DNA of 57,294 nt from an uncultured Lachnospiraceae bacterium (GCA_964541365.1 CAZIPJ010000001.1:1-57294), one strand, 5' to 3'; counted from the stretch's first letter, positions 5,167-43,400 are shown. Translations and numbers: made by a program. The notes: a model not told the origin generated them from the sequence alone.

Positions 5167-5344
5167 ATTTTCTCTCCAATATATTGCCAGTATAACAGAA
5201 CAAAAAAAAATAATCAACAAAATTGAAAGTGCAAAATTTTCAAATATAAGCTTTAAAATGTTTATTCGTTTTCTAAAACATTTTAAAACCACATATTGAC
5301 AAATTTACCGCCCTGCGATATAATTAGTAAAAGGAGAAAATAAA

Positions 5345-6806: not shown

Positions 6807-6816
6807 TACAAAAAAG

Positions 6817-6840
6817 AAGACCTACTTAGGTCTTTTTTTA
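6817..6840 (+). terminator. Intrinsic terminator of the paralog pair
   Basis: AAGACCTA..TAGGTCTT stem followed by T7. Confidence 0.7.
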
Positions 6841-6917
6841 TTGCACTTTATGCAGCTTATATAGTTAAATCAAACAGAAAGTGTCGCCGACACAAAAATA
6901 AAAAGAGCCAATGGCTC

Positions 6918-7511
6918 TTAAATTTCTTGTCTTGCGCGAAGTGCTTTTTCAAGAGTTATTTCATCAGCAAATTCAATGTCACTGCCCATTGAAATCCCTT
7001 GCGCAAGGCGTGTAACCTTGACCCCAAGCGGTTTAAGCACTTTTGCAATGTACATTGCGGTCGCTTCCCCTTCAACATCTGGGTTTGTCGCCATAATCAC
7101 TTCTTCCACTTTGTTTTTGCTTACACGAGAGAGAAGCTCTTTGATTCTTATGTCATTTGGTCCTTTGTTTTCAAGCGGATTGATACATCCAAACAAAACG
7201 TGATAAACTCCATCAAAACTTTTAATTTTTTCCATTGAAACAATATCTTTTGGCTCTTGCACAACACAGACAAGCTTTTGATTTCTTGTCCTGCAAATTG
7301 GGCAAATTTCGCTTGCAGAGTAATTTCCGCACTCACTGCAAAGCTTAACCTTTTCTTTTACTTCAACCATCGCCTTGGCAAAATTTTGCGCCTTTTCTTT
7401 GCTGTTTTCAAGAATATAAAAAGCATAGCGTTGTGCAGTTTTCTTGCCAACGCCTGGAAGTGCCCTAAAATATTCAATCAATCTTTCAATTGGTTCTTCA
7501 AATTCGCTCAT
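6918..7511 (-). CDS. recR: Recombination protein RecR
   Basis: LPGVGKKTAQRYAF helix-hairpin-helix, C4 zinc finger (CSECGNYS...CPIC) and Toprim region; dnaX-ybaB-recR synteny. Hairpin AGAGCC-AA-TGGCTCT overlaps the stop. Confidence 0.95.
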   Translation of the reverse strand: MSEFEEPIERLIEYFRALPGVGKKTAQRYAFYILENSKEKAQNFAKAMVEVKEKVKLCSECGNYSASEICPICRTRNQKLVCVVQEPKDIVSMEKIKSFDGVYHVLFGCINPLENKGPNDIRIKELLSRVSKNKVEEVIMATNPDVEGEATAMYIAKVLKPLGVKVTRLAQGISMGSDIEFADEITLEKALRARQEI

Positions 7512-7619
7512 ATCTTTCTACCATTCTTTTTTTGCCGAGAAATTTCTCAAAAAATACACTTTTCAACAATAAATCCCAATAGCAAAGCCACTGCCAGCCA
7601 ACCAAATATGGACATTTTC

Positions 7620-7937
7620 TTACATACCCAAGTTTGGAAGTTTATTTTTCTCATCTTGTGCGATTTTGTTTAAAGCATCTCCAATGGCAGAAGCAACCAA
7701 ATCTTCAAGCATTTCAACATCATCCGGGTCAACAACTTCTGGCTTAATTTTTACACCCTTGACTGTTTTATTTCCATACAGTGTAACTTCAACCATTCCA
7801 CCACCAACTGATGATGTGTATTCTGTGCCGTCAATCTCTTCACGAATGCGTTTCATATCTTCTTGCATCTTTTGTGCTTGGCGCATAAGTGCCTGCATAT
7901 TGTTTCCACCGCCAAATCCACCAAATCCGTATCCCAT
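7620..7937 (-). CDS. ybaB: Nucleoid-associated protein YbaB/EbfC
   Basis: 105-aa ORF NMQALMRQAQKMQEDMKRIREEI...GGGMVEVTLYGNKTVKGVKI matches YbaB. Confidence 0.92.
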   Translation of the reverse strand: MGYGFGGFGGGNNMQALMRQAQKMQEDMKRIREEIDGTEYTSSVGGGMVEVTLYGNKTVKGVKIKPEVVDPDDVEMLEDLVASAIGDALNKIAQDEKNKLPNLGM

Positions 7938-7955
7938 AATAATCTCCTTGTTATT

Positions 7956-8402
7956 TTAAATTTTCATTTCATCATAAGCGATTTGCTTAATTGACTTATT
8001 TATAAAATCCACAATCGTAATTGTTTTTTCCCAAATCGTGCACTCTGTTAAATTAATTTCAATCAGAACTTCACTTGGCAAATTTGTATATTGCTTATAA
8101 CTTTTTAAGTGCTTTGCTTTAAACTTCTCCACAAATAATTCATTATCTTTTGGTGAACCAAGAATTTTAGCTTTCCCTGTGAAATTAAACGCTCCACAAT
8201 TTATTGCAACATTCTCATTCTTTTGAATTTGTTCAACTTTGTGAAAAGTTTTGTCAGTTTGCATATACACTTTAAGTCCGTCATTTACCAAACACATCAA
8301 TCTTGTATTGATAGTTCCATTACTGATTGTCGCAAGCGTTGCAAATTCAGTCTTTTCCAAAACGTTTTCTATTTGTTTTATATAATCCGCATATTGCTTC
8401 AT
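7956..8402 (-). CDS. Pyridoxamine 5'-phosphate oxidase-family (FMN-binding split-barrel) protein
   Basis: ATLATISNGTINTRLMCLVNDGLKVYMQTDKTFHKVEQIQKNENVAI fits the PNPOx-like pattern. TAATG stop/start overlap with the upstream ORF. Confidence 0.6.
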   Translation of the reverse strand: MKQYADYIKQIENVLEKTEFATLATISNGTINTRLMCLVNDGLKVYMQTDKTFHKVEQIQKNENVAINCGAFNFTGKAKILGSPKDNELFVEKFKAKHLKSYKQYTNLPSEVLIEINLTECTIWEKTITIVDFINKSIKQIAYDEMKI

Positions 8403-10617: not shown

Positions 10618-11790
10618 TTATTTATTGGCAATAACTTCAAGTGCAGGCAAAGGTTTGCCTTCCATAAGCTTCAAACTTGCACCGCCACCAGTAGACAAGT
10701 GTCCGATTCTGTCCGCAAATCCACAAGTTTTGATTGCACTGACGCTATCTCCGCCGCCAACGATTGAATAAGCATCTGCTTTTGCAACCGCTTTTGCAAT
10801 TTTGGTTGTACCTTTTTTGAATCTGCCATCTTCATATTTGCCGACAGGTCCGTTCCAGATAATTTGTCTTGCGTTTGCAATTTCTTTTGTAAAGAGTTTT
10901 ATTGTTTCATTTCCAATGTCAAGCCCAATCATTTCGCCATCAAGAGTCTTCGTCTTAATTACTTTATCTTTGCTCTTGATTAAAGCAAGGTGGTCGACTG
11001 GAAGCAAAATCTTGATTCCTTTTGCCTTGGCAGTCTCCAAAATTTCTTGTGCGTCATCAACTTTGTCAAGAGACACGATTGACTTTCCCACCTTTCTTCC
11101 CTGCGCTTGAAGGAAGGTGTAAGCCATTCCACCGCCAATGATGATTGTGTCTGCTTTATCCATCACATTGTGAATAAGGCTAATCTTGTCATCAACCTTT
11201 GCCCCACCAAAGATGGCAACAAAAGGATGTTTTGGAGATTTTAAAGCTTCTTCAAAAATATTTATCTCCTTTTCAATCAAGAAACCAATTGCGTTTGGGA
11301 GTTTGACTGAAAGTCCATAAGTTGATGCGTGTTTTCTGTGGCAAACGCCAAATGCATCATTAACATATATGTCTGCAAGCTTAGAAAGTTCCTGCACAAC
11401 CTTTGGAGAATTTGCTTCTTCTCCTTCAAGAAATCTGACATTTTCAAGAAGCAAAATTTCACCATCTTTAAGTTTTTCAACTTCTCTTTGTGCATCAGGT
11501 CCAGCTGGTGCTCTTGAAAATTTAACCTTATTTGGAAAAACTTTCATCAAATAAACTGCGACAGGAAACAGGGAAAGATATTTATCATAACTGCATTTTG
11601 GTCTGCCAAGGTGAGAGCACAAAATCACTCTTGCTCCCTTGTCAGCCAAATACTTGATTGTTGGCACTTCGGCAGAGATTCTTGTGTCGTCCAAGATGTC
11701 ACCGTAATTGTCAAGTGGCACATTGAAATCACAACGCAAGAATACGCGTTTTCCTTTTATATCCTTTAAGTCCCTAATCGTCTTTTTCAT
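10618..11790 (-). CDS. pgk: Phosphoglycerate kinase
   Basis: 390 aa; RCDFNVPL, ILCSHLGRP, GGGDS...STGGGASL motifs; pgk-tpiA synteny. Confidence 0.96.
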   Translation of the reverse strand: MKKTIRDLKDIKGKRVFLRCDFNVPLDNYGDILDDTRISAEVPTIKYLADKGARVILCSHLGRPKCSYDKYLSLFPVAVYLMKVFPNKVKFSRAPAGPDAQREVEKLKDGEILLLENVRFLEGEEANSPKVVQELSKLADIYVNDAFGVCHRKHASTYGLSVKLPNAIGFLIEKEINIFEEALKSPKHPFVAIFGGAKVDDKISLIHNVMDKADTIIIGGGMAYTFLQAQGRKVGKSIVSLDKVDDAQEILETAKAKGIKILLPVDHLALIKSKDKVIKTKTLDGEMIGLDIGNETIKLFTKEIANARQIIWNGPVGKYEDGRFKKGTTKIAKAVAKADAYSIVGGGDSVSAIKTCGFADRIGHLSTGGGASLKLMEGKPLPALEVIANK

Positions 11791-21329: not shown

Positions 21330-21920
21330 ATGAATATTTTTTGGACAATAATGATGTTTGGGGGCGTGCTTGTGCTGCTAATCACAAACCCATCAGCTGT
21401 GCTTTCAGAGATGATTGGAGCTTCTGCCAGTGCTTTGAAACTGTGCATAGAACTTTGTGCAATTTATGCAGTTTGGCTTGGAATTATGGAACTTGTTGAA
21501 GCAAGCGGGCTTGCCGAAAAACTTGCAAAACTGCTTCGCCCACTAATTAGAAAAATTTTCAAAGTTGAAGACAAAGAAACACAAAAAATAATTGCACTCA
21601 ATGTCTCCGCAAATATGCTTGGCATAGGCAACGCTGCAACGCCAATGGGAATCCGTGCAATGCAAGCTCTTGACGACAAATCCGGAAAGGCAACCTTTGC
21701 AATAATTATGCTTATCGTGGTCAACGCAACATCAATCCAACTGCTCCCAACCACCGTCATCGGACTAAGGCAAAGTGCAGGCTCTGCAAACCCCGCTGAC
21801 ATAATCTTGCCAACTCTTCTTGTCACCTTTTGCACAACTGCACTTGGGATTGTGCTTGTCCACTTGATTGACAAATTCAAAAGAAAATTGGACAAGCCTT
21901 CCACAAGGAGTGCAAGATGA
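21330..21920 (+). CDS. spmA: Nucleoside-recognition-domain membrane protein, SpmA-like
   Basis: 196 aa, polytopic; MNIFWTIMMFGGVLV...GNAATPMGIRAM pattern of spore maturation protein A. No obvious SD. Confidence 0.8.
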   Translation: MNIFWTIMMFGGVLVLLITNPSAVLSEMIGASASALKLCIELCAIYAVWLGIMELVEASGLAEKLAKLLRPLIRKIFKVEDKETQKIIALNVSANMLGIGNAATPMGIRAMQALDDKSGKATFAIIMLIVVNATSIQLLPTTVIGLRQSAGSANPADIILPTLLVTFCTTALGIVLVHLIDKFKRKLDKPSTRSAR

Positions 21921-22423
21921 GTGTATATATATTACCCGCCTTATTTTTGCTTCTTTTCGTCTATTGCATCTATAAACGCATAAACACCTATGACCACTTC
22001 GTTAAAGGCGCAAAAGGGGCAATAAAACTTGTTGTGGACATTTTCCCATTCATCGCATCCATTCTGATTGCCGTTGCACTTTTGAGAGTGAGCGGTATAA
22101 CAGTTCTCTTGGGCAAACTTCTCTCTCCGTTTTTCAATCTGCTTGGCATCCCAACAGAGCTTTGCGAGCTTGTACTTCTTCGCCCCTTTACTGGCAGTGG
22201 CAGTTATGGAATTTTGGAAAATATTTTCACCACCTACGGTGCAGACAGTTACATCGCCCGCTGTGCCTGCGTAATTATGGGATGCAGCGAAACAATCTTC
22301 TATGTTGCCACCGTTTATATCTCACAAACCAAAGTGAAAAAACTTTTGTATGCAATCCCCGTTGCACTGTTTTGTTCACTTGTCGGGACAACCCTTGCCT
22401 GCCTAGTTTGCAAAGTGATGTAG
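21917..22423 (+). CDS. spmB: Nucleoside-recognition-domain membrane protein, SpmB-like
   Basis: 168 aa; ATGA overlap with spmA; FVKGAKGAIKLVVDIFPFIASILIAV pattern. Confidence 0.8.
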   Translation: MSVYILPALFLLLFVYCIYKRINTYDHFVKGAKGAIKLVVDIFPFIASILIAVALLRVSGITVLLGKLLSPFFNLLGIPTELCELVLLRPFTGSGSYGILENIFTTYGADSYIARCACVIMGCSETIFYVATVYISQTKVKKLLYAIPVALFCSLVGTTLACLVCKVM

Positions 22424-22542
22424 GAACTCGTTCCATTCTGTGCGTGACTTTCTTTATTTCACACATTTTTGAATAACAGAAAGCAAAAAATATACACAAA
22501 ACCATTATTTTCAGATTCTTTTCATTTTTTCCAAAGAAGATA

Positions 22543-22569
22543 TTGACAACTCCCCCCCCGTGTTATACT
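22543..22569 (+). promoter_or_regulatory. Cassette promoter A: TTGACA-ACT-C8-GTGT-TATACT (15-nt spacer)
   Basis: TTGACA 22543-22548, C8 22552-22559, TATACT 22564-22569; AGGGGGA SD and ATG follow. Confidence 0.6.
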
Positions 22570-22591
22570 GAGAAAAATTAAGGGGGAATTT

Positions 22592-23623
22592 ATGAAAGCA
22601 AAAGTGAAAAATATTGATATTGAGACTTTAACTGATGCAGAACAAGAGAATATAGACTCATTAGGGTCAGAATGTAAAGATGCTCTTGAAGAAAGAAATT
22701 TTGGCAAATACAAGAAATTGCAAAAAGCACTTTCAAGGTTCAAAACTGAGAGCGGCGACATTGTGTATGCGTATGACTTTTATGAACAATTACATTTTAT
22801 GATTTTGCTTGTCGACACCTATTATCGACGAGACAATGAAAAGCCTTTCAGCGAAGGTAAATTAGTTAGCCTAGTAAAAAACGCACTAAAATATGCACCT
22901 GATGAATTAGATGTAAATTTCTCAAATTGTTTTTGGATGGTTTTCCACCCAAACTGGCTCATACTCTCTGAAACAAGATTTAAAATTATGGATGAATGTT
23001 TGAAACATTATCCAAAGACTAATGAATATGAGTGGTCCAAAATTCTCGCAAATGCTGCATCTTGTGAATTTAAATACAGCCAAAGCAATCAAGAAATTAT
23101 AAATGAGCTTGTTGAGCGTGGTGCAAACATTAATATTGCATTGTTGGAAGCACTCAAAAAGGGTAACACTCACTCAATAATGGTATTGAATTCTCTTGGA
23201 GCAAAGATTAAGCCGGAACTTATTTCTGATGACATGAAGTTGAGTAAGGCAGATTTTGAATCAAAACTTAAAGAAGCAAAGGAAAAGTTTAATGAAGAGT
23301 TTTTAAGCCTAATAAGAGACGATGAGACATATAATCCTTACACTATTGCTAGGTACATTAATCTTGGTGCAGATGTAAACTATTGCTCGGAAAAACACCA
23401 CCGCAAACTTGTACCACTGTTTGAAGCTATAAGGGGAGAAAAAGAAGCAATTTTTGACCTTTTACTTAAATCGGGTGCAAATCCAAACATAAAAGTTGGT
23501 TCTATCTCTGCTCTACAAAAAACAATCGACTTTAAAAATATAAGAATGGCGAAGAAGTTGCTTAAAAATGGTGCAGACCCAACTGATGTTGTTATAGATG
23601 ACTCAAAAGTAGAAAAAAATTAA
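22592..23623 (+). CDS. Cassette gene A: 343-aa cytoplasmic protein with C-terminal ankyrin repeats, zero-frame stop after an A7 run
   Basis: GADVNYCSEKHHRKLVPLFEAIRGEKEAIFDLLLKSGANPNIKV...AKKLLKNGADP are ankyrin-type repeats. No signal peptide. Confidence 0.85.
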   Translation: MKAKVKNIDIETLTDAEQENIDSLGSECKDALEERNFGKYKKLQKALSRFKTESGDIVYAYDFYEQLHFMILLVDTYYRRDNEKPFSEGKLVSLVKNALKYAPDELDVNFSNCFWMVFHPNWLILSETRFKIMDECLKHYPKTNEYEWSKILANAASCEFKYSQSNQEIINELVERGANINIALLEALKKGNTHSIMVLNSLGAKIKPELISDDMKLSKADFESKLKEAKEKFNEEFLSLIRDDETYNPYTIARYINLGADVNYCSEKHHRKLVPLFEAIRGEKEAIFDLLLKSGANPNIKVGSISALQKTIDFKNIRMAKKLLKNGADPTDVVIDDSKVEKN

Positions 23624-23856
23624 AGAAAACACTTCAATATGCCAGAAATGCCAATAGCAACATCACTGATAATAAAACGGACGAATCAACTGCCGCCAGA
23701 AAAGAAAGTGAAGTAGTAAAGATTACAACTCCAAAATCAACAAATACAGCTGGCACACAGAAAGAATCCCAAATTACAAGTTCCCCAGAAAATAAAGAAT
23801 CAAATACTGAACATTCTGCTAGAAACAAAGTCAATCCAGACGGCGAAGGAAAATAA
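23602..23856 (+). other. Open -1-frame continuation of gene A encoding a low-complexity linker plus the family tail ...ARNKVNPDGEGK
   Basis: 85 stop-free codons with no ATG. The frame opens 7 codons before the gene A stop and ends in the same motif and terminator as genes B and C. Confidence 0.7.
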
Positions 23857-23857
23857 A

Positions 23858-23888
23858 GAAAAAGACTGAAAAATTCAGTCTTTTTTTA
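23858..23888 (+). terminator. Terminator module copy 2
   Basis: AGACTGA-AAAAT-TCAGTCT followed by T7. Confidence 0.8.
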
Positions 23889-23936
23889 TTAAAAAGCTAG
23901 CATTTTCAAGTTTTTTCACTTTTTTTGAGAAAGATA

Positions 23937-23964
23937 TTGACAACTCCCCCCCCCGTGTTATACT
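23937..23964 (+). promoter_or_regulatory. Cassette promoter B: TTGACA-ACT-C9-GTGT-TATACT (16-nt spacer)
   Basis: C9 at 23946-23954. Confidence 0.6.
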
Positions 23965-23986
23965 GAGAAAAATTAAGGGGGAAAAT

Positions 23987-24715
23987 ATGAAAATCACTGA
24001 TGAATTATTTACATTAACTTTCGAAGACATCAAGCGTTGTGCAATCTGCGATGACGCTGACGAACATCTTGATAAACATATGGTGGAAACTTTTTGGGTA
24101 TATGCAGAGGGATTTGCAAAAGATAGCATATATAAGTCACTCAGCAATGAAGAAAAAGCTTTTGGGACACTTTGTGCGGGACTTTTGGCTATGTGTTATC
24201 GTACTCAGCGATACGGTGGCTCTGATTCGTGCAATTTATTCAACGAATCAAGTCCACTATTATACAAAGATGGTGGGTTTGTGTCAATATCAAGTCTCGC
24301 TCCATTAGAGCGCGATATAGCAGTAAGAATGATGCTAATTTCCATTTGTAAGATTATGCAAGACGCTCTTGTATGGGAAGAAAGTAAAAATGAAAAAGGT
24401 TCTTATACTGCTGTCGGTATTTCGCTCTCTGAAATTCCTTATGATACTAAAAGATTTTTAAGACCCGAAAGTCTTAGCTTCATATCACACGCAGTTTTTG
24501 GACAAGAGATAGACTTTAAAACATATGACCCTAAGGCTGGAACTTATAAATTTAAAGAGCCTTCATCTATCTCCGTTAAAGAAACTATGGAGTCACTCAG
24601 CCGAAAAATAGAATCTGGAATAAAAGAGTACAAAGCATATATGAGTGCAGAAAAGTCAAATAAAACTGAAAAACAAACAAAAACAAAAACCGACCCAAAT
24701 GGTGACGGAAAATAA
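23987..24715 (+). CDS. Cassette gene B: hypothetical 242-aa cytoplasmic protein ending ...KTKTDPNGDGK
   Basis: AGGGGGA SD; no signal peptide; no family recognised. Confidence 0.8.
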   Translation: MKITDELFTLTFEDIKRCAICDDADEHLDKHMVETFWVYAEGFAKDSIYKSLSNEEKAFGTLCAGLLAMCYRTQRYGGSDSCNLFNESSPLLYKDGGFVSISSLAPLERDIAVRMMLISICKIMQDALVWEESKNEKGSYTAVGISLSEIPYDTKRFLRPESLSFISHAVFGQEIDFKTYDPKAGTYKFKEPSSISVKETMESLSRKIESGIKEYKAYMSAEKSNKTEKQTKTKTDPNGDGK

Positions 24716-24716
24716 A

Positions 24717-24746
24717 GAAAAAGACTGAAAAACTCAGTCTTTTTTA
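24717..24746 (+). terminator. Terminator module copy 3
   Basis: AGACTGA-AAAAC-TCAGTCT followed by T6. Confidence 0.8.
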
Positions 24747-24796
24747 TTAAAAAGCTAGCATTTTCATATTGTTTTCACTTTTTTTTAAGAAAGATA

Positions 24797-24824
24797 TTGA
24801 CAACTCCCCCCCCCGTGTTACAAT
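24797..24824 (+). promoter_or_regulatory. Cassette promoter C: TTGACA-ACT-C9-GTGT-TACAAT (16-nt spacer)
   Basis: C9 at 24806-24814. Confidence 0.6.
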
Positions 24825-24846
24825 GAGAAAAATAAGGAGAATCAAT

Positions 24847-25353
24847 ATGGGAATAAAAAGAAAATCAAAAAAAGATGATGTTTTTGAAAGTCTTAGCACT
24901 CTCTATGAAGACGCTAAAAATTCACATAAGAAAGTCGAGCAAGTGGTACAATGGATTCGTTCTGTTGAAGCACAATGTCACACTGTAAGTATTAGTGTAG
25001 AAGAGATAACCCGCTGTCTTGCACAGATTGATGAAAAAATTGATGGGCTCAACTTTGAAAAAGCACTCTGCAATAAAAATATTGAGTTAATCAAAGAAAT
25101 GAAATCAAGTAGACGCGGAACAGCGTGCTTAAAAAAATTCGAAAATTCTTTAAAAGAAAACAAACAGGTTGGATTTGAATCACTTTCAGTTTGTGTGCGT
25201 GATGACGCTTTTGCTGCACAAATTGAACTTAATATGTCGCTTAAAGGACTTCTCAATCGCACCAAGCGAGATTTAACAGAAAAAAGTGGAACATCTACCG
25301 CAACCCAATCTGAAACGCCTACTAAAACCAACCCAAATGGCGATGGGAAATAA
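24847..25353 (+). CDS. Cassette gene C: hypothetical 168-aa, predicted helical protein ending ...TPTKTNPNGDGK
   Basis: AAGGAGA SD before ATG 24847. The track's start at 24769 would translate the promoter itself. Confidence 0.8.
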   Translation: MGIKRKSKKDDVFESLSTLYEDAKNSHKKVEQVVQWIRSVEAQCHTVSISVEEITRCLAQIDEKIDGLNFEKALCNKNIELIKEMKSSRRGTACLKKFENSLKENKQVGFESLSVCVRDDAFAAQIELNMSLKGLLNRTKRDLTEKSGTSTATQSETPTKTNPNGDGK

Positions 25354-25354
25354 A

Positions 25355-25385
25355 TAAAAAGACTGAAAATCTCAGTCTTTTTTTA
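25355..25385. terminator. Terminator module copy 4 (convergent, shared with the methyltransferase gene)
   Basis: AGACTGA-AAATC-TCAGTCT followed by a T run. The minus-strand stop TGA (25374-25372) lies in the stem. Confidence 0.8.
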
Positions 25386-26106
25386 TTTGTATATTTTTAG
25401 TGTGCAAGCTTTCAAGATAGTTGCCGTCGGCGTCATTTCTAATAAGATTTGGCAAGACTTTACACCCTGCCTTTCCGCCTTTCACCGCTTTAAGCACAGC
25501 CAAATTGATTTTCCCTTTTCCATTTTCGGTGAAGAAAAGCTCTTTCACTGTCAGTTTTTCGTTTTGCAAAACAGAAATCAGCTCAGCAATCCTTTCAGCA
25601 CCATACACACAATAAAAACTTCCGCCGTTTTTAAGCATCACACTTGCAGTCTTTGCCAAGGTCTCAATTGGCAAGCAGACATCTTCTTTTGCAATCTTTT
25701 TCACTTCGCTTTGAGCAAAATCGGTCTGCTTGTAAAATGGTGGATTCGAGAAAACAACATCCACGCTTGCGGGTTTTACATATTGTGCAAAATTTTTAAC
25801 ATCGTCCTGCACCAATTTGATTTTCTCTTCCAAATTGTTCAGTCTCAAATTTTTCTCGCAAAGCTGAGCCATAGGTTCTTGCAATTCAAATGCAACAATA
25901 TTTTTTAAGCCGGTCTTTGCTTGCACAAGGATTGAAATCACCCCACAACCTGCACCAATTTCAACAGCAAGTGCATCTTTTTTTGCTTTGACAAAATTTG
26001 CCAAGATGACACTGTCAGATGTGAATGTGTAGAGCTCTTTGTCCTGAATTATTTTCAAGCCATTGCACTGCAAATCTTCCAGTCTTTCACTCTCTTTCAG
26101 TTTCAT
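25372..26106 (-). CDS. SAM-dependent N6-adenine methyltransferase, YabB / tRNA1(Val) m6A37-like
   Basis: VEIGAGCGVISI SAM-binding motif and FSNPPFY catalytic motif; position after yaaT as in B. subtilis yabB. Confidence 0.8.
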   Translation of the reverse strand: MKLKESERLEDLQCNGLKIIQDKELYTFTSDSVILANFVKAKKDALAVEIGAGCGVISILVQAKTGLKNIVAFELQEPMAQLCEKNLRLNNLEEKIKLVQDDVKNFAQYVKPASVDVVFSNPPFYKQTDFAQSEVKKIAKEDVCLPIETLAKTASVMLKNGGSFYCVYGAERIAELISVLQNEKLTVKELFFTENGKGKINLAVLKAVKGGKAGCKVLPNLIRNDADGNYLESLHTKNIQIKKD

Positions 26107-31436: not shown

Positions 31437-34400
31437 TTATCTATTTGCAAGTTTTTCTCTACGCTTCTTGCGTCTTACTGAAATAATGATGAACAGCACA
31501 ATGAGCAAGAGAAGCAATCCAATAATTCCGATGATTAAATAAATGTACCAACCAGCACCCTGTTTACCTTGCAAGATGACTGCGTTTTGTGAAAGAACTC
31601 CAAACAAACCGCCATAGCTTACTGTCTCGTAAGTGAATGCGTTGTAGATGCCTGAAACTCTGTGTCCATTGAAATTAAAGAGACCATTGAATGGGAATTC
31701 TTCTGTTCCGATAGGTGTCCAGAATCTGTCTGAAAGTTCTAAATCCTTTTTCAAGATATAACTTGCGCTTCGATATTGCTTACCGTTTCCATAAGTTGCC
31801 CCGCTGTTGCAGAGCCTCATCATAAGCACCAATTCATCCACTGACGAAATCTCAAAAGGTTCGTCATCTGTGCCAGAGCCAGCAAAGCCAGAAGCACTAA
31901 CAGCATAATCTTCCCAAAGAAGTCTGTAATACTCAATTTCAATTTGAACAGTTCCAAGAATTCCTTTTGCTTCTATGAAATCCTTTGTCAAAATAAGGTT
32001 TCCTTTGTCGGTGAAAACAAGTTCATCCTTTGTCAAAGTCAAATCATAATTTTTTACAGTAATAGAAGAGATTGCATATCTTTGGTTTGTAACAAGTCCA
32101 ATTTCAATGCTTTGTGCATCAGCAGAAGCAGAAATTAAGTCTGCTCTTCTTCCCTTGAAAGTTGTGTAACCAGCAGCATTTACAAAGTTGTTGTCCATTG
32201 CATTTGTAGCTTTATCTGCATCAGCAAAGCGTCTGTTTACATAAATTGAAATTATTTCATTCTTGAACTCTGGCAAAATTCTCATCAAGTCGCCTTGTGG
32301 GCAGTTTTCAATGGCAAGGTCAAAATATGACAATCCGTTTTCATAATGAGAGAATTTGATATCGTCCCTGTTCCAGATAATTGCAAAGCCATAGTCAACA
32401 GCAACTGCAAATGTTACTTTGTCTCCAACTTTGACATCAATTCTATCAAGAGCTGGGATAAATTGTCCAGCACTGTAATTTCCAAGTCTATAAGCCCTGC
32501 TTGTGCCATCAGTTGATGTTGCAACAACATTCAAAATCTGTCCAAAAGTATAGTCATAAAGGTTTCCACTTTCGTCAGCGAAACTCATTCGGAATGTTCG
32601 TCCTTGAAGGTTCAAAATCAGTGTTGTTTTAGCAAGCGCCCTAAGGTCTTCCCAATCCTTTGTCCAACAAGTTTGACCTGTTGTGACATTGTTCCATCTG
32701 ACAAACTCATAGTCTTGCTCGTTGAACTCTGCAATAAGATTGAAGTTCTTTGTCGTGTCAACATAGTTTTGTTCGTTCAATGCTCTTGCCTGTGGGTCAG
32801 ATGCTTCTTGCTCAACCTTGAAACCACCTTCTCCGCCATACACAACAACATCAACAAGCGCAAAGTAAACAACTTGCACATCGCACTCAACAATCTTGTC
32901 AAGTTCGTTTGTTGACCAAGGCACTTCTTCTGAGAAAGTCACCACATCTTCAAGCCAATTTCCATTTATGTCTTTTTGCTTGATGACGAATTTATAGAAT
33001 TTGTAACCTTGAAGTTTTGGCGCTTTGATGTAAATATTTGTGTTGAAAGCAACTTCAATATAAAGTTTTGATGTTGGATAATACCAAGAATTTGTGTAGT
33101 CCACACCAGAAACCATATCTTGTGCAGTTGCATTGATTGAGACATTTGGAACAACTTCAAAATGAATTCTTGTTTTGTAATAAGACCAGTAGAGATAGAG
33201 CGTAATTTCCATTTCCCCAGTCTGAGAATTGAAGTAAGCATTTTCAGTAAGTTCGTATTTTGAAGTTAAGCTGTTGAGCTGATAACCGCTTTCATTCCAA
33301 GCTTGAAGCACTGTGCCGTCACTGTCGATGTACATCACGCCAGCGCCATTTTCACTTGTGAAGAAACCGTCAAAGTGATAGTTTTGTCTGCTCATCAAGA
33401 ATGCAAGTTTTCCATCGACAAACGCAAGCTTGTCTTGTGAAGTAAGGATTTGAATGTTTGCTTGGTTTATTTCTGAAAGTTCCAATCGAGAACCAAACTC
33501 AACATTTTTAACCACTGCCAACACATTTCCTTCTTCAACAAGCTTAACTGTGTAAGTTGTTGGATGAACAAGGATGTAAATTTCATTTTCAAACAGATAG
33601 TCTTTTACAATGAAGCTAACTTTCGCTGTGAAACCATCAAGTTTGATTGAAAGTTGTTCAACTTGAATTGAATCTCTGTCTATGATGTCGTTTTCGCAAA
33701 CAAGTTCAACATTCTTTTCGTAAATATAATAGCCAACTCTGATATAAGCAACTACTTCAAAAGTGCTGTCTGTGTAAGCTGAAACAGTGATTGAAGAATA
33801 GTCTCTACCAGAAGCAAACACCTTGTTTGCATTTTGTGCGTCAACCACATAGTTTATTGCACCAGCGTTAGTGTCAGTATCGGATACCTTGAAGCCAATT
33901 TTGATGTCATTTAAGTTTGGTCTAAACAAAACATCAATGTCCACTTCCGTTCCGCCAATTGCACCCATTATTGTATAGATTGCATAGTTTTCGCCTTTCT
34001 CGATTTGATAAACAGTCACAAGCATTGAGTTTGAAACCACATCAAAGAATTTGTAACCAACCTTTTTGGTGTTTATCTTGATGTAAACATCTTCACCTGT
34101 GTATCCAACAATCGTGAAAGCTCTATCGTCGACAAGTTTTCCGTCTACAAAATCTTCTGAGCTGTAACGAGTTCTTGTCCCTTCAATATAGCCATATTGA
34201 TTTACGCCCAAACCGTTTTCACTTTGCAGTTCAACTCCACCAACATCAATGTTAGGCTCTCTCACGCCTTCAATGTCAATTTCAGTGTTGATATTGATGT
34301 TGAAACTGTAAGCCTTGACAATGACATACAAAACAAAGTTAACAACATCTTCATCAAGTTCAAGACTTGAAATTGTAAACTGAACAGTGCGTTCTCCGCT

Positions 34401-37400
34401 TTCAGCAGTTTCAAGAATTACAAAATTGTTTCCGTTGTAATATCCAATACCATAGTAACGATACCCCGTTGGAACAACATAAGAAATTGTTTTGCTTGCA
34501 CCGTAATAAAGTTCAAGTGAATAGATATCATTTTCGGTGTCAGCATCCAAATATCTTTCTCCAAATCCCGCAATTTCTTGATAGATAGTTCTTTCAAGTG
34601 CAGGTTCGCCATATTCGGAGTTGAGAGTGTAATTGTTGTAAGTACCAAATCTAATTGTAAACTTCATTGATGAGAAGATTGCATAGATTGTTTCATTGTC
34701 TACAAGCTCATAGTCCAAAATCTCATCAGTGCTGAATACATTTTCTCCATCTCTGCTCCAACCTGCAAAACTGTAAATTGAAAGCATCTGGTAAGAAAGT
34801 GTAAGTTTTGTACCAAAATCTGCAACAATGCTTGAAAGTGAATTTTCTTGAATATATGCTTTGTTTTCTGGTTCGTCAACAAGTTGCTTCAATTCGTTGT
34901 AAGAAAGAGTTTCAACTTTCAAAGTAAATTGAGATATCTTGCTTGTGAACAAGATTTGTCCATCTTCTTCAATATCTGAAACGACAATCTTGTAATAGCC
35001 TTCCTGTGCGTACAAACCTTCTGTTGCAAGAGCACATTGAATGATATACTGAGAATCAGTTTCAAATTGAGCAAATTCATAACCGTGCTTGTATTTTAGA
35101 TACATTTCAAGTGTTTCGCCAGCCACTCTTCTCATCGTTGGCAATTTATCAAAATCTCTGTAAGTATTGCCATCAACAACAAGAGCTTCCACTTTGTCGT
35201 TTTCGCTGAACTTGACAACTATGTCATTGATAACTTCAAGTGTGCTAAGTTCAATTGAAACATCTCTCAAAACATTTGAAATTTCAATTGTCAACACATC
35301 GCTGACAACAGATGTTTTGACAACAACATCAGCGTCTTCGCAAATTACTTCTTCAAGCATCTGGAAGCCGTAAGAAGCAGAAACAACAAGTTTCAGGGCT
35401 TTTCCAGTTTGAAGTCTGACTGCGTTTGATTCAACAGAAAGAGCTTGTTCTGTTCCATCTGTTATGTCGTAAGCTAAAATTTGTCCAATATTATCGCCCA
35501 AAACTGAAACCGTGTTTGTTTTTGCGGTTGCAGAAATTTTGCAAACAAGATTTTCTGCTGGCATCTTAAAGCTTACAATGGCAACACCGCTTGAAACTGT
35601 CACCTTGAAGTTTTTATTCCAAGACTCAACATTTTCCAATGTATAGCCAGCATCTGCGGTAACATTGAATTCAATCTCTGTTTCAAAGTCAACACCATTG
35701 AGAGTGTAAACATTTCCATTCTTCACAAAGTTTGCAGAAGATGAAATTGAAACATTTTCAACAGTGATTGAAATATCAAAACTTGCGATTTGCCATCTCG
35801 CAGTAAGAGTGTGGTTTTGAGTAGTTGAAAGCACGCTCTGTCCATTGATTTTGTTTCCACTTGCGTCAAACCAACCAACAAAGTTGTAACCTGTACGAAG
35901 TGGAGTTTCAATCCAGTCAGAACTTTCTGCATAATTTTGTTTGAAAGGAACAGTAATCTTTTTGTTCTCAGTCTTTCCGTCAGCAAAGTCAAGAGTAACC
36001 ACCACACCAACAGCTTCAAAATTTGCAGTCAATGTAAGTTCTGTCTGACCTTGTGAAACCAAAGCTGAGAGCTTTGTATTCTCAAAATCGGAAGCAACAG
36101 TTGTTCCGTTTGAAATTGAAACAAGTTCAAAACCGTCTCTATGCAAACCAATGTTTGCAAGAGAGAATTGTTGAAGTTCAAGATAAGTTGCTCTCCAAGA
36201 ATACTTGTTGTCAGAGCCTTTCACAAATTTTGTTGATGAAATTGTTGCGTCAGACGCATCTGACAAATCAAATATAACATTCACTTTTTCAGCTTCAAAT
36301 CTTGCAACAAAGTTGTATGTTGTTGAAAGGTTTGCAACAGTCAACAGAGCTCCGTCAGCACTAGTTGAAACTGAAACTCCACTTGCTGTACCGTTGTCAT
36401 AGTGGATGCTTCCTGTCGCATTGTAGAAGCCATAATATGTGCAATGTTCATTTGCAATCGCTTTAAGAGTAAGTTTTGTGCCGTAGTCAAATCTTCCTGT
36501 GAAGCTTGCAGATGAAGTAATTTCAATTTCTTCTCCATTCCCTGCCACAAGCAAAACTTTTCCAAAGTCGGCATCAGCGCCGGTCTCATCAGCGACTTTA
36601 ATGCTCACTTGATATTTGTTTATATCCCAGTTTGCATCAAAAGTAAATTCAATGTCGTCATTCTTGTAATAAGTTCCAAACAAGTCTGTTTCATTGTTGA
36701 GAAGGGCTTTCAAAAGTTCAACTGTGTCAGCGTTGTTTCCAACATCAATCTTAAACTCTTGGTTTTCATAACTGTAATCTTGTCCAAGTGTCTTTCCAAG
36801 TTTTTTAAGAACAGAAGTAAGGAAAGTGTGTTGCATTGAGCCTTCTGCCACATTTTTGAATGACAATGTCCATTTTTCAAACACAAAACCTGTTCTTCCA
36901 GTAAGATTTGTTGGGAAGTTTCTAAGAGATGTTGTATTTGCATTTGCTGAGTTTGCAGTCAGATATGAATCTGACATAAATGGAAATGCAAGTGCTGAAA
37001 GCTGTGGCAAGTTGCTATTTTCAACATTTGACTTAACATTGCTTCCATTTGCATTGTAGTTGAAATTCAATTTCACTGTAACGGCTTCAATCACACCATA
37101 TTCCCAAGAAGAGAGCGCGTAATTTCCTGCATCAGCCCCGCCCAAGCGGAAGTTGATTGTGATTGCTTGCCCAATAAATTCTGTTGCATAAGTTGCACTT
37201 TCAATTTTCACATCATCATAGGCGTGAATTGTGGTTGTTCCGCCAAGCCCGTCAGAAACAACTTTGTCTTTGTCAACTGTGCCGACAAGCAAGATTCTTT
37301 CTTCGCCTTCTTCGTCAAGCAAAGCCACATCTTTTGTTCCGTCATACTTCTTTGTGAAGATGTCTTCAATTTCTTCCTTGACACCTTCAAGAGTAAGCGT

Positions 37401-40400
37401 TTTTGCAATGATTGAAACAGTTGCATCGTTCAAATTGTTTGCTTCTTTTCCATTGACAACAAACACTGGTCTGAAATCTGGTGTACCAACAGTGCATACC
37501 ATTGAGTAGTCACCGACTTTAAGAGAACCGCTTGTTGAATACTGTTCTTCTTCTGCGAAAGGCATAACTTTGACATCAACACCTTTCTCGTACCTGTTAA
37601 GGTTTACATCAGAAGAATATTCAAAATCGATGTCAACTGACTCACCATAAACGAAAGTTTGGTCTTTCACCGAAACAGTCAAGAGTGCAGGGATAATTTC
37701 TCCGACAAGAGCATCCCCGTCACTTGTGCAAAGATTCAAATTATAGTTTGTCTGTCCGCCGATGAGAGTTGCTTCAACATCATAAGAGTATCCAACATAT
37801 TTAGCTCGTTTGCCATCTTGTGTCAAACTGATTGAAAGAGTCAAGCCTTGAACATCGTCCGCCAAAATGCCTGAAAGCATTTGCGTTGGCTCATCATAGA
37901 CAATATCTGAATCGTCATTGTCAAAAACTTTTGTAATAGTTGAATTTATAAAGTAAACTTCTCGTTTTGTAATGCTTAAATTGAAACTGTGTTGTCCGTA
38001 TTTTCCAAGAGACACTTGGAGATTGTCCGCAGTCTCATCTGTTGCATTAATAACATAATTTCCAAAGTTTCTTCCGCCTGTTCCATTTGCAAAAGTGATG
38101 TTTGCTTTAAGTCCATCAACAGTCACATCACTAAGAAGCGTGTATTTGTCTTCTTCGGCATTATAAGAATAGTAGTTAAGGTCATAGTATTGTTTTGCAG
38201 ATGTTCTTGCTGTGCTTTCAAACACAAGTTGATATTTTTTGCTTCCTGCCTTTTGTGCAACAGTAACCTTATCATAAAGGTTTCCATCATAAACAATTGT
38301 TGCACTTTCGTCGTCTGTGCCCAAAACTTCTGGGGAATTGCTCATCAAGATATAAATCATTTCTTGCGCTTTTGCAATTCTGAATGCACCTTCACTTCTG
38401 TCTGTGACGCTTGCAACCTGATAATTTGCAGAAAGTGAGTTTGCTGACAAAACTTTGTAATAGCCAACTTCAACGCCATCTTCTCTTGTGAAGTTAAGTC
38501 TAATCACTTCGTTGAGTGGAGTTGAGAAGTCGCCAACAAATTCATCCGTTGTTGTTTCGCTTGCACCATAAACATAAATAAATTGTCCACTTGTTTGAAG
38601 AAGTACAGAAATTTCAAATGGTGAAACTGTTATGCTTTGTCCACTTGCAAAAATCAAATTATAGTTTGCAGAGCTTGAACTTTCATCAAGTGAAACCAAA
38701 TATGTATCACAATTTAAGTATCTTGCAGTGGAGTAAGTTGCATCCACCACATTTAAAACAATATTGTATTGTGAAGCTGAGATTGCAAAGCCACCTGCTG
38801 TCACTGTGAATGGAACAACATCTCTTGATGTCAAGTTTCCATAAACAAAATCTGTTTTTGTAAGAGCGATGTAAGCATCAGCCTTTGTGATTTTTCCTTT
38901 AAGTCCGTCAGTGTTTTTAAGTTCGTAGTTTACACTCTTTACGCCTTGCAAGAACATTGTTACATCAATGTCTTCCCCGACATTCGCACTGGCAAATCTT
39001 GCAACAAGTGAAACCCCGTCTTCTCCAACTTTCCCATCAAACTCATTGATTGTGAAAGTTGCAGAGCCTGTGTATTGCCATTCAAGAGCAAGACTGCTTG
39101 CATCAATTTCTTTCTTTGAAATTACAAAATTGTATTCTTCTGCAAAAGCAAAGTTTGAGTGAGTTGAAGAATTTGCACGAAGTGACAATCTGAAACTTCC
39201 CGCATCAACAAATGAAGTTGTGTTTGTTCCTGAGAAGATTTCAAGACTGTTGAAAGCGACATCTTCCACTTCGGAGCCATCGCTGGCATAAGTAAATTGC
39301 AGGTTTGCAGTTTCCGTTACGCCGTTGTTAGCAACTGATAAAGTTTTTGCAGAAGCATCCACAGTCAAGCTGTATGCAAGTCCATTATACACACCAGACA
39401 AAAGGTCTTTATCCAAAGTTATGTAAACAAGATTTTCTTCTGTCTTTACTTCAAAACCATTATTTTCTGCTTCAATGCTCAAAACAATGCTTCCGTTTAC
39501 ATATTCTGTTTCTGCCAAAGCCAGAGAATAATGTCCAACAACTGCTGGACTTCCAACGGTTGCACCAACAACACTGTAAAGAATATCAAATGTGTCGCCC
39601 GTTTCACTGAAAGTGTAGGTTTCTTTATAAGTTGCTTCAATATTTTCGCTTGCAAGAATTGAGAACTGTCCAACTGAGATTCCTTTATTGATTCTCTTTT
39701 CAGCAATCACAACTGTTGGCAAGTAAAGATTCATATTAAAATCATCAAATGAAGCTGTTGCTTGAAGTTGATAACTTCCTTTATATACATAACCATTTGC
39801 ATTTGCAAGAGCAGTTGTTGGCAAAGAGTATTGAATATTATAATAACCGTTTGCCAAAATGTCAGATACATCATTCCCGTTCAAGTCAGAAATAGTGTAG
39901 TTTTTGTTCACATTAGAGTCAAGATTGCTTATTGAAATTTCACCATATTCATAAACATCCTTGCTCATTGTTGCAGTAAGTCTTGCAGACAGTTTTGAAA
40001 TTGTCGCTTGTGCACTGCTTTCTGAAAGTTGATAGTTTGAGATTGCGTCTGATGAATTTGTATCCAAAAGACTTAAATCAACTCTGGTCTGTCCAGCGTG
40101 TGCACTTGCATAAGTTGCCAAGATGTAAACGCCGTCAAAACTGTCAATGTCTTCAATTTTTGTGCCACTAACATCAAAGTATTCTGTTGCTTTTCCGTCG
40201 TACACTTTGTCCAAAGCAAGTTCTGATGCATCAATCAAAATCTTTCCGACAACAAATTGATAACCTTGTGCAAAAGTGAGATTTGAATAGTATTTTGAGA
40301 TTTCTTCCAACCCTTCAAAAACATAAGTATATGTTCCACTTGCTGTAACAGTTTCGTGTGACGCAGTGTCAAACAGTTTAAGCTCAACGTTTTTGAAACT

Positions 40401-43400
40401 ATCCAAGAGCAACGACAAAACTTCTGAGTTTGAAATTTGTGCATCAGCAGTTTCGTCAAACAAATTCAAAGTCAAAATCTTGATTGGCAAGCTTCCATTG
40501 TAAATTTTAAGCGTCAAGTCATCGAGTTCAACTCTGTATCCATCCGCACTGTAACCCACTTCAATTGTTTCTGGATTTGCATCTGAAACCTTGTAGGACA
40601 GTCTCAATGTTCCACTTGTCAAAATTTCAAAAGTTCCAACGCTTGTTGTTTTTCCAAGTTGTGTAAGTTTTCCATTTTCAAAGAGAACAACTCCGTTCAT
40701 CTTAACAGTGTAGTTGTCTTTCAAAGCTTCTGTCAATGAAGCAACTGTCAAATCATAAGTTCCAACATCTTCGCCAAAGCCCCTTACAAAGCTGAATCTA
40801 ACTGTCTCATTTGCAAGATAGATGTCTCTGATAAGTTCTGGTTCTTCACCGTTGAAGTTTTTGCTGTACTTAATCTCATATTCTGAAAGTTCAACTTCAT
40901 AAGGTTTAACAACAACTTCAAAAGTCAAAGTGCCAAACTCTGCTGAATTTGAATATACAACATCGCTTCCTGACACTGTGATTATATATGTGCCAGCGTC
41001 TTTCATTGATGTAGTCAAAACGCCATTTCTTGTGATTTGGATGTTTAAATTTCTTGCGCCAGCATAATATTCAAGCAAATAATTTGGATTTTCTCCATAC
41101 TGTCCAAGTTCGGTATCATAAATTGCATATTCAACTCTGAAATACCAATTATTGAGCTTATCTTGTCCGTCATAATCAAACTCTGAGTCACCAACAAAAG
41201 TGATTTCATTGAGTTTATTTTTGATAAACTCCATTTCAAAGGTCACTTCAAAGGAATTTGTTGCACCTTCACTGCTTACAAGTGCAGTTGTCAAAAATTC
41301 TTTCTTAACATTTGCGGTTACAACAAGTTTGTAAGTCCCGTTGTCATCAACTGTTCCATTTCCATCAAGAGTGAATCTTTCAACTCTTGAAATAAGTTCG
41401 TCGCCCTTGTACCATTCATAAGTGTAGTTGAAAAGGTTTTCGTTTTTGTTATAGATGCTTACAACATCGTCAACAGACAAATATTCAAATCCATAAACAC
41501 TTGTCTTATACTCTGTCAAGCTTTGTCCATAAGTCATCTCTTCAATCATCCACTTAGCTTCAAGTTCAACCTTTGCGTGTCTGTCAGATGAATTGATTCC
41601 TTTAAAAGTTCCATCAGTGCTGTCAAAAAGCTTTTCATAAGAAACTTTCGTCTTTGTTGAAGTCAAAGAAGCAAGCTTGAAACCATTTTCGTTTGGCATA
41701 AGCAAGTCTTCAACAGTTGAAGCACCAAGTTTAAGCAATGAAGTTGTTGCAGAAGAAGTTGAGTAGTTGCTTGGGAAATTTAAGTTGTAATTTACCAAGA
41801 CCATATCTGTATAAACTGCATACAAATTGTAAGTTGTCACCATTCCGGCTTCTTCTGATAATGAAGCTTTTTCAATTGTGAAACTTGTGTTGTTTTCCAT
41901 CGTTCCGTCGATATTGAAAGTCTCAGTTTCGCTCCACTTGTAAAGAGCCAAATAGTCACTTAAAGATTTTTCTGTTGTTGAAACAGTTACTGTCAAAACA
42001 AACTTAGACAAAATCGCTGAGATTTCGTTTGCGTTGTTGTTTTCGATTTGACAAATAATAACGCCGTTGTCTTCATAGTTTCTTACCTGCAAGTAACCAT
42101 TTGTTGAATCTGACAATCTTCTCACCCCAAGTCCATCGTTCAAATCATAAGTAACTTGTGTGATTCTAAGCAAGTTTTGAGAAACTGTTGTTGGCAATTC
42201 TCCAAAGTTCATAAAGCCATTAAGATAGGTCAAATATTTTGCAGAAATGTCAATTGTTGCAACCCCGTCAACATTCAAAATTGAGAAGATATCATCTTCG
42301 CCAAGGATGAGTTTATAACGGTTTGTGACATCAGTCATCACAATCTCGCCATTCAAAACGCTTCTTTCATAGATTGAAACATTTGTGTAATACAGATAAT
42401 TCTTATCAGAAACAAAGCTATAATCTACATCCTCCTTTTCTTTTCCATTGTTTGAAGTAAGAAGATTTGCTTTTGCATACAATGTGTCGTCAATCTTGTA
42501 ATAGCCTTCAAAGCCTTCAAGCATAAGTTCTTGACGATTTCCTTGCCAAGCTGATGAAGCACTTGCAAGATTTGCGTTGTAATAGGCAGCTTTTGACGCA
42601 GCTCTATTTTCAACTTCCAAAAGCTCTGGCAAAATATAAACTTGCCCAAGGTTGACATACGCATCACCATTTTCGTCGTAGTTCAAAACGAAATTGCCAA
42701 GGCTGTTTTGTCCATCAGCATTTCTTATGTAAGCTCTGAAATAATAAGTTGTGTCAACATTTATGCTTGTTGCAGATATTTCAACTCTGTCGATTTCAAC
42801 TTCTCGTCTTGGGTTTTCCACAGTTGGAGAACTGAACACAATCGAATTATTATAAACAGAGAAATCATTTATTGCAGAATTTTTATGGTTGTAGAAATCG
42901 AAGAAATACATTCTTGAAACAACATTTTTTACATCATTTTCAATAGTTGCTCTCTGCTCTGCAAAATCAGCATAAGTCATTTCTTTGTAAGTTTTGTAGT
43001 TTGTTGAAGTGAGCATATAGAAGTATTTGTACATCACAAACTCATACGCTTGCTTGTTTGTCACACCTGATGTAACAGTGCTGTCGAGCGAACTTAAAAC
43101 ATTCTTAACAAACGCATCAAAAGTGTTGCAATTTTCAATACGTGCCATTGTTGCACTTGGCACAAACTTAGACATAATTCTCTTGACATTAACAAGCCAA
43201 ACATCTTCGTTGTCACTTTCAATTCCAACAGAAAGAGTTGTTTCTGAAATCTGTGCGTAAAGACTGATTGTTTGTGTATAAAGTGTCACGCCTTCTGAAA
43301 TCAGGTCTTCCAATGTCAATACAAGCGTCACATTGTACAAGCCGACATTCTCAGCAGAGAAAGCAGAATTTCCAATTACATCAACCATAGCGGAAGTGAT

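Follow-up and report, generated by a model that had tools for sequence, protein, structure and literature searches.

The 57,294-nucleotide (nt) stretch CAZIPJ010000001.1:1-57294 (GCA_964541365.1), recorded as DNA of an uncultured Lachnospiraceae bacterium and analysed here over its whole length (hereafter the window), carries a tandem array of three open reading frames (ORFs A, B and C) between an spmB-like gene and a tRNA-type methyltransferase gene. Each ORF lies between a copy of one repeated 5' module, which contains a promoter with a homopolymeric C tract, and a copy of one repeated 3' module, which contains codons for a C-terminal tail and a terminator. The array would comprise three single-gene transcription units, each re-using the same two modules. 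The coordinates of all these features are collected in Table 1.

The repeated promoter block reads GATATTGACAACT-Cn-GTGT-TATACT (TACAAT in copy C) and is present in three copies in the window, with n = 8, 9 and 9. Indeed, GATATTGACAACTCCCCCCCC occurs without mismatch at positions 22539, 23933 and 24793 and in none of 100 dinucleotide shuffles, and the looser pattern TTGACA-N2-6-CCCC-N0-10-TGNTA retrieves the same three sites of the window only, against 0.01 expected; the block and its coordinates, as reported in a first-pass annotation of this DNA, are thus borne out. The three tracts are the only C or G runs of at least 7 nt in the window, for which about 0.17 C runs of at least 8 nt are expected from base composition. 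In order, the 5' module is composed of a T-rich upstream region, a sigma-A -35 hexamer (TTGACA), a spacer, a -10 hexamer, an A-rich leader and, at the usual distance before each ORF, a strong Shine-Dalgarno (SD) sequence. The spacer consists of ACT, the C run and GTGT, the C run being its sole repetitive part, and measures 15, 16 and 16 nt in copies A, B and C; the fixed GTGT gives all three copies a TGn extended -10. Each fixed piece of the repeated block has a promoter role, and the sigma-70-type assignment made at first reading holds, the -35, TGn and -10 elements all being accounted for. As in contingency loci, a homopolymer is found between the core-promoter hexamers (TTGACA and TGn-TATACT/TACAAT).

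The two junction units, which had been described as nearly identical, share 119 of 133 aligned columns (89%), and the homology of the sequence upstream of gene A to the B unit extends over approximately the last 100 nt (84/103 identical). The terminators are hairpins of 11-14 bp followed by T runs, with predicted energies of -11.7 to -14 kcal/mol.

Table 1. Features of the array and of its flanks (positions in the window)
Feature	Position	Strand	Description
spmB-like gene (Gate domain)	21917-22423	+	Left flank of the insertion
5' module, copy A	22507-22591	+	T-rich upstream region; -35 TTGACA 22543-22548; spacer ACT+C8+GTGT; -10 TATACT 22564-22569; SD AAGGGGGAA 22580-22588
C8 tract, promoter A	22552-22559	+	C9 in the independent Logan assembly L002
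ORF A	22592-23623	+	343 amino acids (aa); ankyrin repeats in the C-terminal part
A7 run at the end of ORF A	23613-23619	+	ORF A would be fused to linker and tail by one additional A or by ribosomes slipping -1 on A_AAA_AAT
-1-frame continuation of gene A	23620-23856	+	Probably disordered S/T/K/E-rich linker, then ...NKVNPDGEGK-stop; tail codons 23833-23856
Junction unit 1	23857-23986	+	Hairpin 23859-23885; -35 23937-23942; C9 23946-23954; TGn and -10 TATACT 23955-23964; SD 23975-23983
ORF B	23987-24715	+	242 aa, orphan; tail codons 24692-24715 (DPNGDGK-stop)
Junction unit 2	24716-24846	+	Hairpin 24718-24744; -35 24797-24802; C9 24806-24814; TGn and -10 TACAAT 24815-24824; SD AAGGAG 24834-24839
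ORF C	24847-25353	+	168 aa; predicted all-helical; no known family; tail codons 25330-25353 (NPNGDGK-stop)
Bidirectional terminator	25356-25382		Common to ORF C and the convergent methyltransferase gene, whose stop codon falls in the stem
tRNA-type methyltransferase gene	25372-26106	-	Right flank of the insertion

A lineage-specific insertion in a conserved slot

Relatives of the window were found via the flanking methyltransferase (60-74% identity among the listed homologues), and the closest of them (72-74%), which have the same gene order as the window, were examined. In seven assemblies (L009, L010/L011, L013, L033, L034 and L035) the array is absent, and the spmB and methyltransferase genes are adjacent and convergent. 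In BLAST alignments, homology of the relatives to the window ends within a few bases of the spmB stop at the left edge (22419-22426); at the right edge (25352-25406) it ends either at the terminator or slightly within the methyltransferase gene. Since relatives lack the array and homology breaks at the edges of the slot, the array, about 2.95 kb long, is an insertion specific to this lineage, in a conserved intergenic slot. Its third-codon-position GC content (GC3) is 0.25-0.29, and its GC, GC3 and codon adaptation index are slightly below those of the neighbouring genes. In L013 the gap holds the terminator AAAAAAGACTGATTTTTCAGTCTTTTT, which has the same stem as the bidirectional terminator at the right edge of the array; because the stem is present there and the array is not, the array terminator is the ancestral terminator of the locus, copied with each added unit.

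In one further relative (L032, Logan ERR14654640; methyltransferase 73% identical), the same gap contains one 178-aa gene in the same orientation, for which neither a relationship to A, B or C nor a family match was found. Its promoter, TTGACA-ATCGCCCCCGTCC-GTGT-TATAAA, has a C-rich, non-repetitive spacer of 17 nt, resembling a C10 run with three substitutions, so that the spacing of this orthologue is "locked". Because the same hexamers are found in L032 around a non-repetitive 17-nt spacer, the hexamer assignment and the 17-nt optimum are confirmed. The C-terminus of the L032 protein reads ...HPKGSTDGEGK-stop and is followed by AGAAAAAGACTGAAAATTCAGTCTTTTTTT, a homologous terminator.

The rest of the window is core housekeeping DNA, with nusG, argS, recR, dnaX, tpiA, pgk, dus, rplI, ksgA, tatD, holB, a Ca-ATPase gene, trpS, gltX and dnaB. 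No recombinase, phage, toxin or secretion gene was detected in the window by a Pfam scan of its ORFs, in line with the earlier remark that no recombinase, toxin or mobile-element gene is visible nearby, which holds across the 57 kb; Rfam and tRNA scans of the window gave no matches. Further lineage-specific insertions were seen in the same syntenic block of relatives, namely an SDR gene (10768-11505) in the spmB-methyltransferase gap of L010/L011 and a 444-aa orphan (6817-8151) between the Ca-ATPase gene and holB of L013, both without a poly-C promoter. Finally, a 6,093-aa ORF unlinked to the array is encoded on the minus strand at 31437-49718; its last 1,499 residues (31437-35936) match Listeria-Bacteroides (Flg_new) repeats, and its size and position are kept in relatives (6,083-6,187 aa).

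The shared C-terminal tail and the predicted products

The 3' module is composed of the codons for ...[ND]P[ND]G[DE]GK-stop and of the terminator, which begins 2 nt further on. Its DNA is present for all three genes and translated for two of them. The first-pass annotation had stated that the three ORFs share only their last codons; the bodies are indeed unrelated, no pairwise similarity being found outside the last eight residues by BLASTP or by Smith-Waterman alignment with shuffling, but ORF A as sequenced ends before the tail, at a TAA (23621-23623) directly after the A7 run. The gene A tail (stop 23854-23856) ends 233 nt past the ORF A stop, and the 77-codon linker and the tail are open in the -1 frame. 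Several origins of the stop after the A7 run are conceivable: a second switch, working by slippage in translation; programmed -1 frameshifting on A_AAA_AAT with the stop behind it; a mutation that has recently turned the gene into a pseudogene; or an error in sequencing the homopolymer.

When L032 is included, four mutually unrelated ORFs from two species have the same C-terminal peptide in frame (in gene A it can be read) with a terminator 2 nt after it. In the order A/B/C/L032, the last codons are GGC/GGT/GGC/GGA for glycine, GAA/GAC/GAT/GAG for aspartate or glutamate and GGA/GGA/GGG/GGA for glycine, followed in all four cases by AAA for lysine and by the stop TAA. Among these 12 coding positions three sites vary and all are third-codon positions, for which the chance probability is about 4/220. 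Because variation is confined to third-codon positions, the tail is conserved as a peptide across species, and the C-terminal peptide of otherwise unrelated proteins appears to be under purifying selection. This common peptide is likely a functional tag; the roles of the proteins themselves are inferred. An S/T/K/E-rich, probably disordered linker precedes the tail in A, B and C, while the linker of L032 is shorter and less polar. No hydrophobic N-terminus, signal peptide or transmembrane segment was found in A, B, C or the L032 ORF (maximum KD19 at most 1.56).

The tail DPNGDGK presumably resembles the calcium loop of dockerins and EF-hands, which consists of a full 12-residue loop plus a helix and, in dockerins, belongs to duplicated segments of about 22 residues. 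Membership of this family was rejected, as the protein ends at loop position 7 and no Dockerin or EF-hand Pfam match is obtained at E<=1.

Beyond generic ankyrin matches, two protein collections with billions of sequences contained no relatives of the products. For ORF B, a word-index search of 5.8 billion sequences and an exhaustive HMMER search over 1.84 billion representatives retrieved only the protein itself; one additional match (P0130) was discarded as an artefact of a repetitive beta-helix protein. For ORF A, only the protein itself was recovered apart from generic ankyrin matches, and exact-protein look-ups showed A, B and C not to be on record. Pfam, PHROGs, PADLOC and NCBIfam searches with six cargo ORFs revealed nothing beyond ankyrin, with a weak PADLOC match (PDC-M72A) over the ankyrin region of ORF A, and single-sequence AlphaFold2 models of ORFs B and C reached a pLDDT of about 51.

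Elsewhere in the window, two tandem paralogous orphan genes (5345-6076 and 6078-6806) without Pfam family are 58% identical overall. Over the last ~65 residues they hardly differ, which points to gene conversion, and both end with a T/K-rich linker and ...ADKDKGGK-stop, like the tails of the array; their promoter, ATATTGACA-AATTTACCGCCCTGCGA-TATAAT, has a C-rich spacer of 17 nt. Because this pair ends in ...DKGGK-stop, a lineage-specific C-terminal motif may be more widespread.

Copies of the promoter at other loci

A search of other genomes for the block, proposed at first reading, did reveal further copies upstream of orphan ORFs. An exact-pattern scan of 185,579 species-representative genomes gave one, on L001, an uncultured Christensenellaceae metagenome-assembled genome from mouse gut with a GC content of 0.374 (0.373 in the window), which is probably the same genome as the window. 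In L001, an orphan ORF of 172 aa, situated between dnaN and dut, follows TATTGACAACT-C9-GTGTTATAAT. A metagenome scan added L008, in which an identical 28-nt core with C9 precedes an orphan 135-aa ORF, and L004, where the copy lies at the end of a contig and has C10 and 3 inserted nt. Unrelated orphan ORFs are thus preceded by TTGACAACT-C9-GTGTTATAAT in both L001 and L008. The tail and the terminator of the array are not shared by L001 or L008, and for this reason the 5' core is the wider element, while the 3' module is specific to the spmB slot. A spacing of 17 nt is found in other consensus promoters, one before rpmH on L001 and one at position 5295 of the window.

The metagenome scan also returned three matches with C6 plus other bases in GC-rich organisms, which are regarded as ordinary promoters or chance matches. 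Promoters of L006 (4733-4757) and L007 (842-866), from unrelated GC-rich organisms, read TTGACAACTCCCCCCTT(C/A)GGTGTTA with 17-nt spacers and lie upstream of gcvT-like and acpP genes; they are very similar also in unconstrained positions and are probably ordinary promoters. On L001, the single dnaN-dut cassette (6455-7110) has a terminator on either side, AAAAAACGGAAAATTTCCGTTTTTTTT and AAAAAAAGCGGAAGTTTCCGCTTTTTT, and the two are similar; there, as in the window, the local terminator may be copied when a cassette is inserted.

The exact promoter pattern was absent from viral contigs, and the junction unit, compared by BLAST with collections of phages and plasmids, matched terminator-like fragments only. 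Matches to the 3' module in viral contigs (17 for the tail pattern and one for tail plus terminator) were dismissed as chance matches. A relaxed promoter scan of viral contigs recovered C5-C7 in 41 stretches (about 20 distinct sequences), compared with 12 for a G5 control; these phage promoters were rejected as relatives of the module, none having the ACT-Cn-GTGT form and none a C run of at least 8 nt. Many of the viral contigs L036-L076 contain consensus promoters of the form TTGACAA-n-C5-7-n-GTGTTATA, and several of them have a G5 just upstream of the -35, with a G5/C5 hairpin enclosing the -35, resulting in a compact terminator/promoter overlap.

Length variation of the C tract

An independent Logan assembly of the same strain (SRR9335148) has two contigs that hold the flanks of the array and end inside the repeated modules. 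Compared with the window, these contigs show no mismatch in 4,544 nt and none in 2,959 nt, and the sole gap is C9 instead of C8 in promoter A. The C9 call is anchored to copy A, since a 31-mer can extend from a base specific to that copy through the tract to GTGT. The earlier suggestion that the C tract is a mutable length element gains support from the lengths of the three copies (8, 9 and 9) and from the difference between the two assemblies; the latter is the strongest indication of instability, but it is a single event and could be a homopolymer error.

The argS gene of the window (3404-5292, minus strand) appears split into two overlapping frames, with the catalytic domain at 3928-5292 and the DALR domain at 3404-4042. 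The break follows ...DGKPFKT, is not at a homopolymer and is probably an assembly indel or a real lesion. Because of this split, single-base indel calls on the contig deserve less trust.

Proposed mode of action and alternative explanations

Repeat-driven phase variation is textbook knowledge in a few pathogens (Neisseria, Haemophilus, Campylobacter, Mycoplasma and Treponema). A literature search found no case of it for strictly anaerobic gut Clostridia. The explanation that we favour, to which we would give about even chances, is that the three promoters are sigma-A promoters whose -35/-10 spacing (15-17 nt) is set by the mutable C tract, resulting in graded, gene-by-gene control. Replication slippage, which would have to be frequent, would shift the C run by one nucleotide in either direction and thereby move the spacing among 15, 16 and 17 nt, the last being the distance in the non-repetitive orthologous promoter of L032. 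If spacing alters expression, the transcription of each gene would be shifted heritably, reversibly and independently of the other two; the three genes could vary independently because each has its own promoter and terminator. In gene A, the linker and tail could moreover have been lost through a 1-nt change in an A7/A8 run. For the poly-G tracts between -35 and -10 of Treponema pallidum tp0126 and Neisseria meningitidis porA, top transcription was reported at 17 nt, with G8-G11 varying in vivo (PMC7864442).

As sequenced, genes B and C are probably on but sub-maximal, because a consensus -35, an extended -10 and a 16-nt spacer lie within the working range. Gene A, with 15 nt (16 nt in the second assembly), probably has a lower expression. 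The idea that all three genes may be low or off, put forward in the first-pass annotation, is accordingly not supported, and the effect of the tract is more likely graded, in the manner of a rheostat, than strictly ON/OFF. The proposal of a contingency locus with independently varying members, made in the same annotation, is plausible and partly supported, though unproven. Several points tell against tract-length control. The extended -10 may buffer the effect of spacing, and the classic hallmarks of contingency genes are absent, the products having neither signal peptides or transmembrane segments nor surface, restriction-modification or glycosyltransferase domains. The within-strain length difference is one event for which sequencing or assembly error in the homopolymer is possible, the split argS is another probable indel on the contig, and four of the five pure tracts are exactly C9, with little spread, a consensus assembly giving the modal length only.

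The same facts could be read as those of a passive repeat, in which one promoter/terminator frame, strong and constitutive, was recently duplicated on the spot, the C run came along with it as a quirk and has no part in switching, and the C8/C9 difference and the A7 frameshift are neutral mutations or noise from sequencing or assembly. This is possible, although we consider it unlikely. It fits the 89% identity of the junction units, the probable argS error, the extended -10, the prevalence of exactly C9 and the functioning of L032 with a non-repetitive spacer; yet a pure C9 with identical flanks is retained before different genes at other loci and in other genomes, no other C run of at least 7 nt exists in the window, and two assemblies that otherwise agree over 7.5 kb differ just in the tract. 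Furthermore, G/C runs of at least 8 nt are slippage-prone in the species studied so far (PMC7864442). Improbable in our estimation is an operator, in which the C-rich spacer (ACT-C9-G, or CGCCCCCGTCC in L032) would be the site of a lineage-specific co-regulator and its sequence rather than its length would matter. The spacer of L032 does stay C-rich although the run is broken, the 28-nt core is identical in L001 and L008, and in phage contigs C5-C7 recurs at this place in the spacer of consensus promoters (41 stretches, compared with 12 for the G5 control). However, the C-richness of L032 equally fits descent from a C10 run, the phage excess is modest and stems in part from G5...C5 hairpins around the -35, dyad or direct-repeat symmetry is absent, and no candidate regulator is linked, a nearby TetR gene being present also in relatives without the array.

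Ankyrin folds occur among immunity proteins, and the layout had initially been compared with integron-like or immunity-gene arrays. A cassette array of the integron or rAID type, in which a site-specific recombinase would have collected immunity or defence genes by way of junction units acting as recombination sites, would account for tandem, co-directional, unrelated ORFs with conserved repeats between them, for GC and GC3 values slightly under those of the neighbours, for the ankyrin ORF with its weak PADLOC match and for a cargo that differs between species at one slot. It is nevertheless very improbable: the 57 kb contain no integrase or XerD-like recombinase among otherwise housekeeping genes, no attC-like imperfect palindrome is present, the only inverted repeat being a perfect terminator hairpin older than the array, each unit has its own promoter, and neither a toxin gene nor a known immunity domain is found. 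Hardly credible, lastly, is an RNA device, whose C:SD pairing was also raised at first reading: base pairing between the C run and the SD G5 would prevent the translation of read-through transcripts and confine it to promoter-proximal ones. C5 does pair with G5 when the A and B leaders are folded to minimum free energy, but this is a 5-bp helix closing a 22-nt loop, missing from the gene B centroid, and the z-score of the copy-A leader is not significant. In addition, the SD of copy C (AAGGAG) cannot pair, L001, L008 and L032 have ordinary SDs, and strong terminators lie upstream of B and C.

Apart from the question of tract length, the spmB/methyltransferase gap could be a conserved "expression slot", supplying any ORF placed in it with a promoter tunable by slippage, with a terminator and, behind a disordered linker, with the in-frame C-terminal tag [DN]G[DE]GK-COOH; its cargo would turn over without a dedicated recombinase. 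The tag would then be a new targeting signal, for instance for export, localisation or controlled stability, and the slot a platform for capturing or originating lineage-specific genes. We regard this as doubtful. No exchange mechanism for the slot cargo is visible. The occurrence of unrelated ORFs in one frame of promoter, C-terminal tag and terminator, across species and at one site, raises the question of how new genes get installed and expressed. If the C tract switches, the array would offer a simple case, open to testing, of an uncultured Christensenellaceae-like commensal that hedges its bets gene by gene.

Comparison with known systems

Phage morons are promoter-gene-terminator units inserted between conserved genes. 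The array, the dnaN-dut cassette of L001 and L008 are likewise autonomous promoter-ORF-terminator units among conserved neighbours; unlike morons, the array lies in chromosomal housekeeping DNA without prophage genes and has no matches in phage, plasmid and viral-contig collections.

Integrons and the rAID-1 arrays of Bacteroidales share with the locus co-directional, unrelated, low-GC ORFs, repeated spacers and a lineage-variable cargo. They differ from it in that the array has no recombinase, no attC and no immunity or toxin homology, and in that each of its genes has its own promoter and terminator. Indeed, the Pfam scan of the window ORFs revealed no intI tyrosine recombinase with attI and Pc beside the array, and in place of promoterless cassettes ending in attC there are consensus promoters and a perfect terminator hairpin that pre-exists in L013. 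The definition of rAID-1 requires a 5' XerD-like recombinase (bioRxiv 10.1101/471110); neither this nor immunity homologues or toxin neighbours were found in the window.

Putative mobile promoters were defined as regions in front of non-paralogous genes that share 80% identity or more over 50 nt or more (Matus-Garcia, Nijveen and van Passel 2012; PMC3575422). The B and C units (89% over 133 columns) and the A and B units (84/103) exceed these values, and the array resembles such promoters in its near-identical upstream regions before non-homologous genes and in the core shared across genomes. In contrast to them, the repeated unit of the array extends to a terminator and to coding sequence for a 3' tail; what different loci have in common is limited to the 28-nt core promoter, and no mobility vehicle was found.

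The vlp genes of Mycoplasma hyorhinis stand in tandem as single-gene units; a poly-A tract is part of the conserved promoter of each, and the genes undergo combinatorial ON/OFF switching. The array similarly has adjacent monocistronic genes, each with a copy of a homopolymer-spacer promoter, an arrangement that would allow independent, combinatorial switching. The vlp genes, however, are paralogous lipoprotein genes with a shared 5' signal-peptide region, whereas the bodies of the array genes are unrelated and have no signal peptide, so that no paralogues with a conserved lipoprotein signal peptide are found among the array ORFs; the shared coding part of the array is limited to the last 5-8 codons, and the tract is poly-C, not poly-A. 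The Vlp system is cited in PMC11868660.

The array also resembles the poly-G switches of porA and tp0126, with the related poly-C of opc and poly-G of tprE/G/J/L: in both, a G/C homopolymer of 8-11 nt lies between -35 and -10, and tract length sets the spacing relative to a 17-nt optimum, lengths differing here among copies and assemblies. The array differs from these switches in its host, an uncultured gut Clostridia lineage (Christensenellaceae-like), in its extended -10 and in its products, which are soluble orphans and not outer-membrane or surface proteins. In summary, the type of switch is known, while the modular form and the unexplained 3' tag are unusual, the tag being the most novel part.

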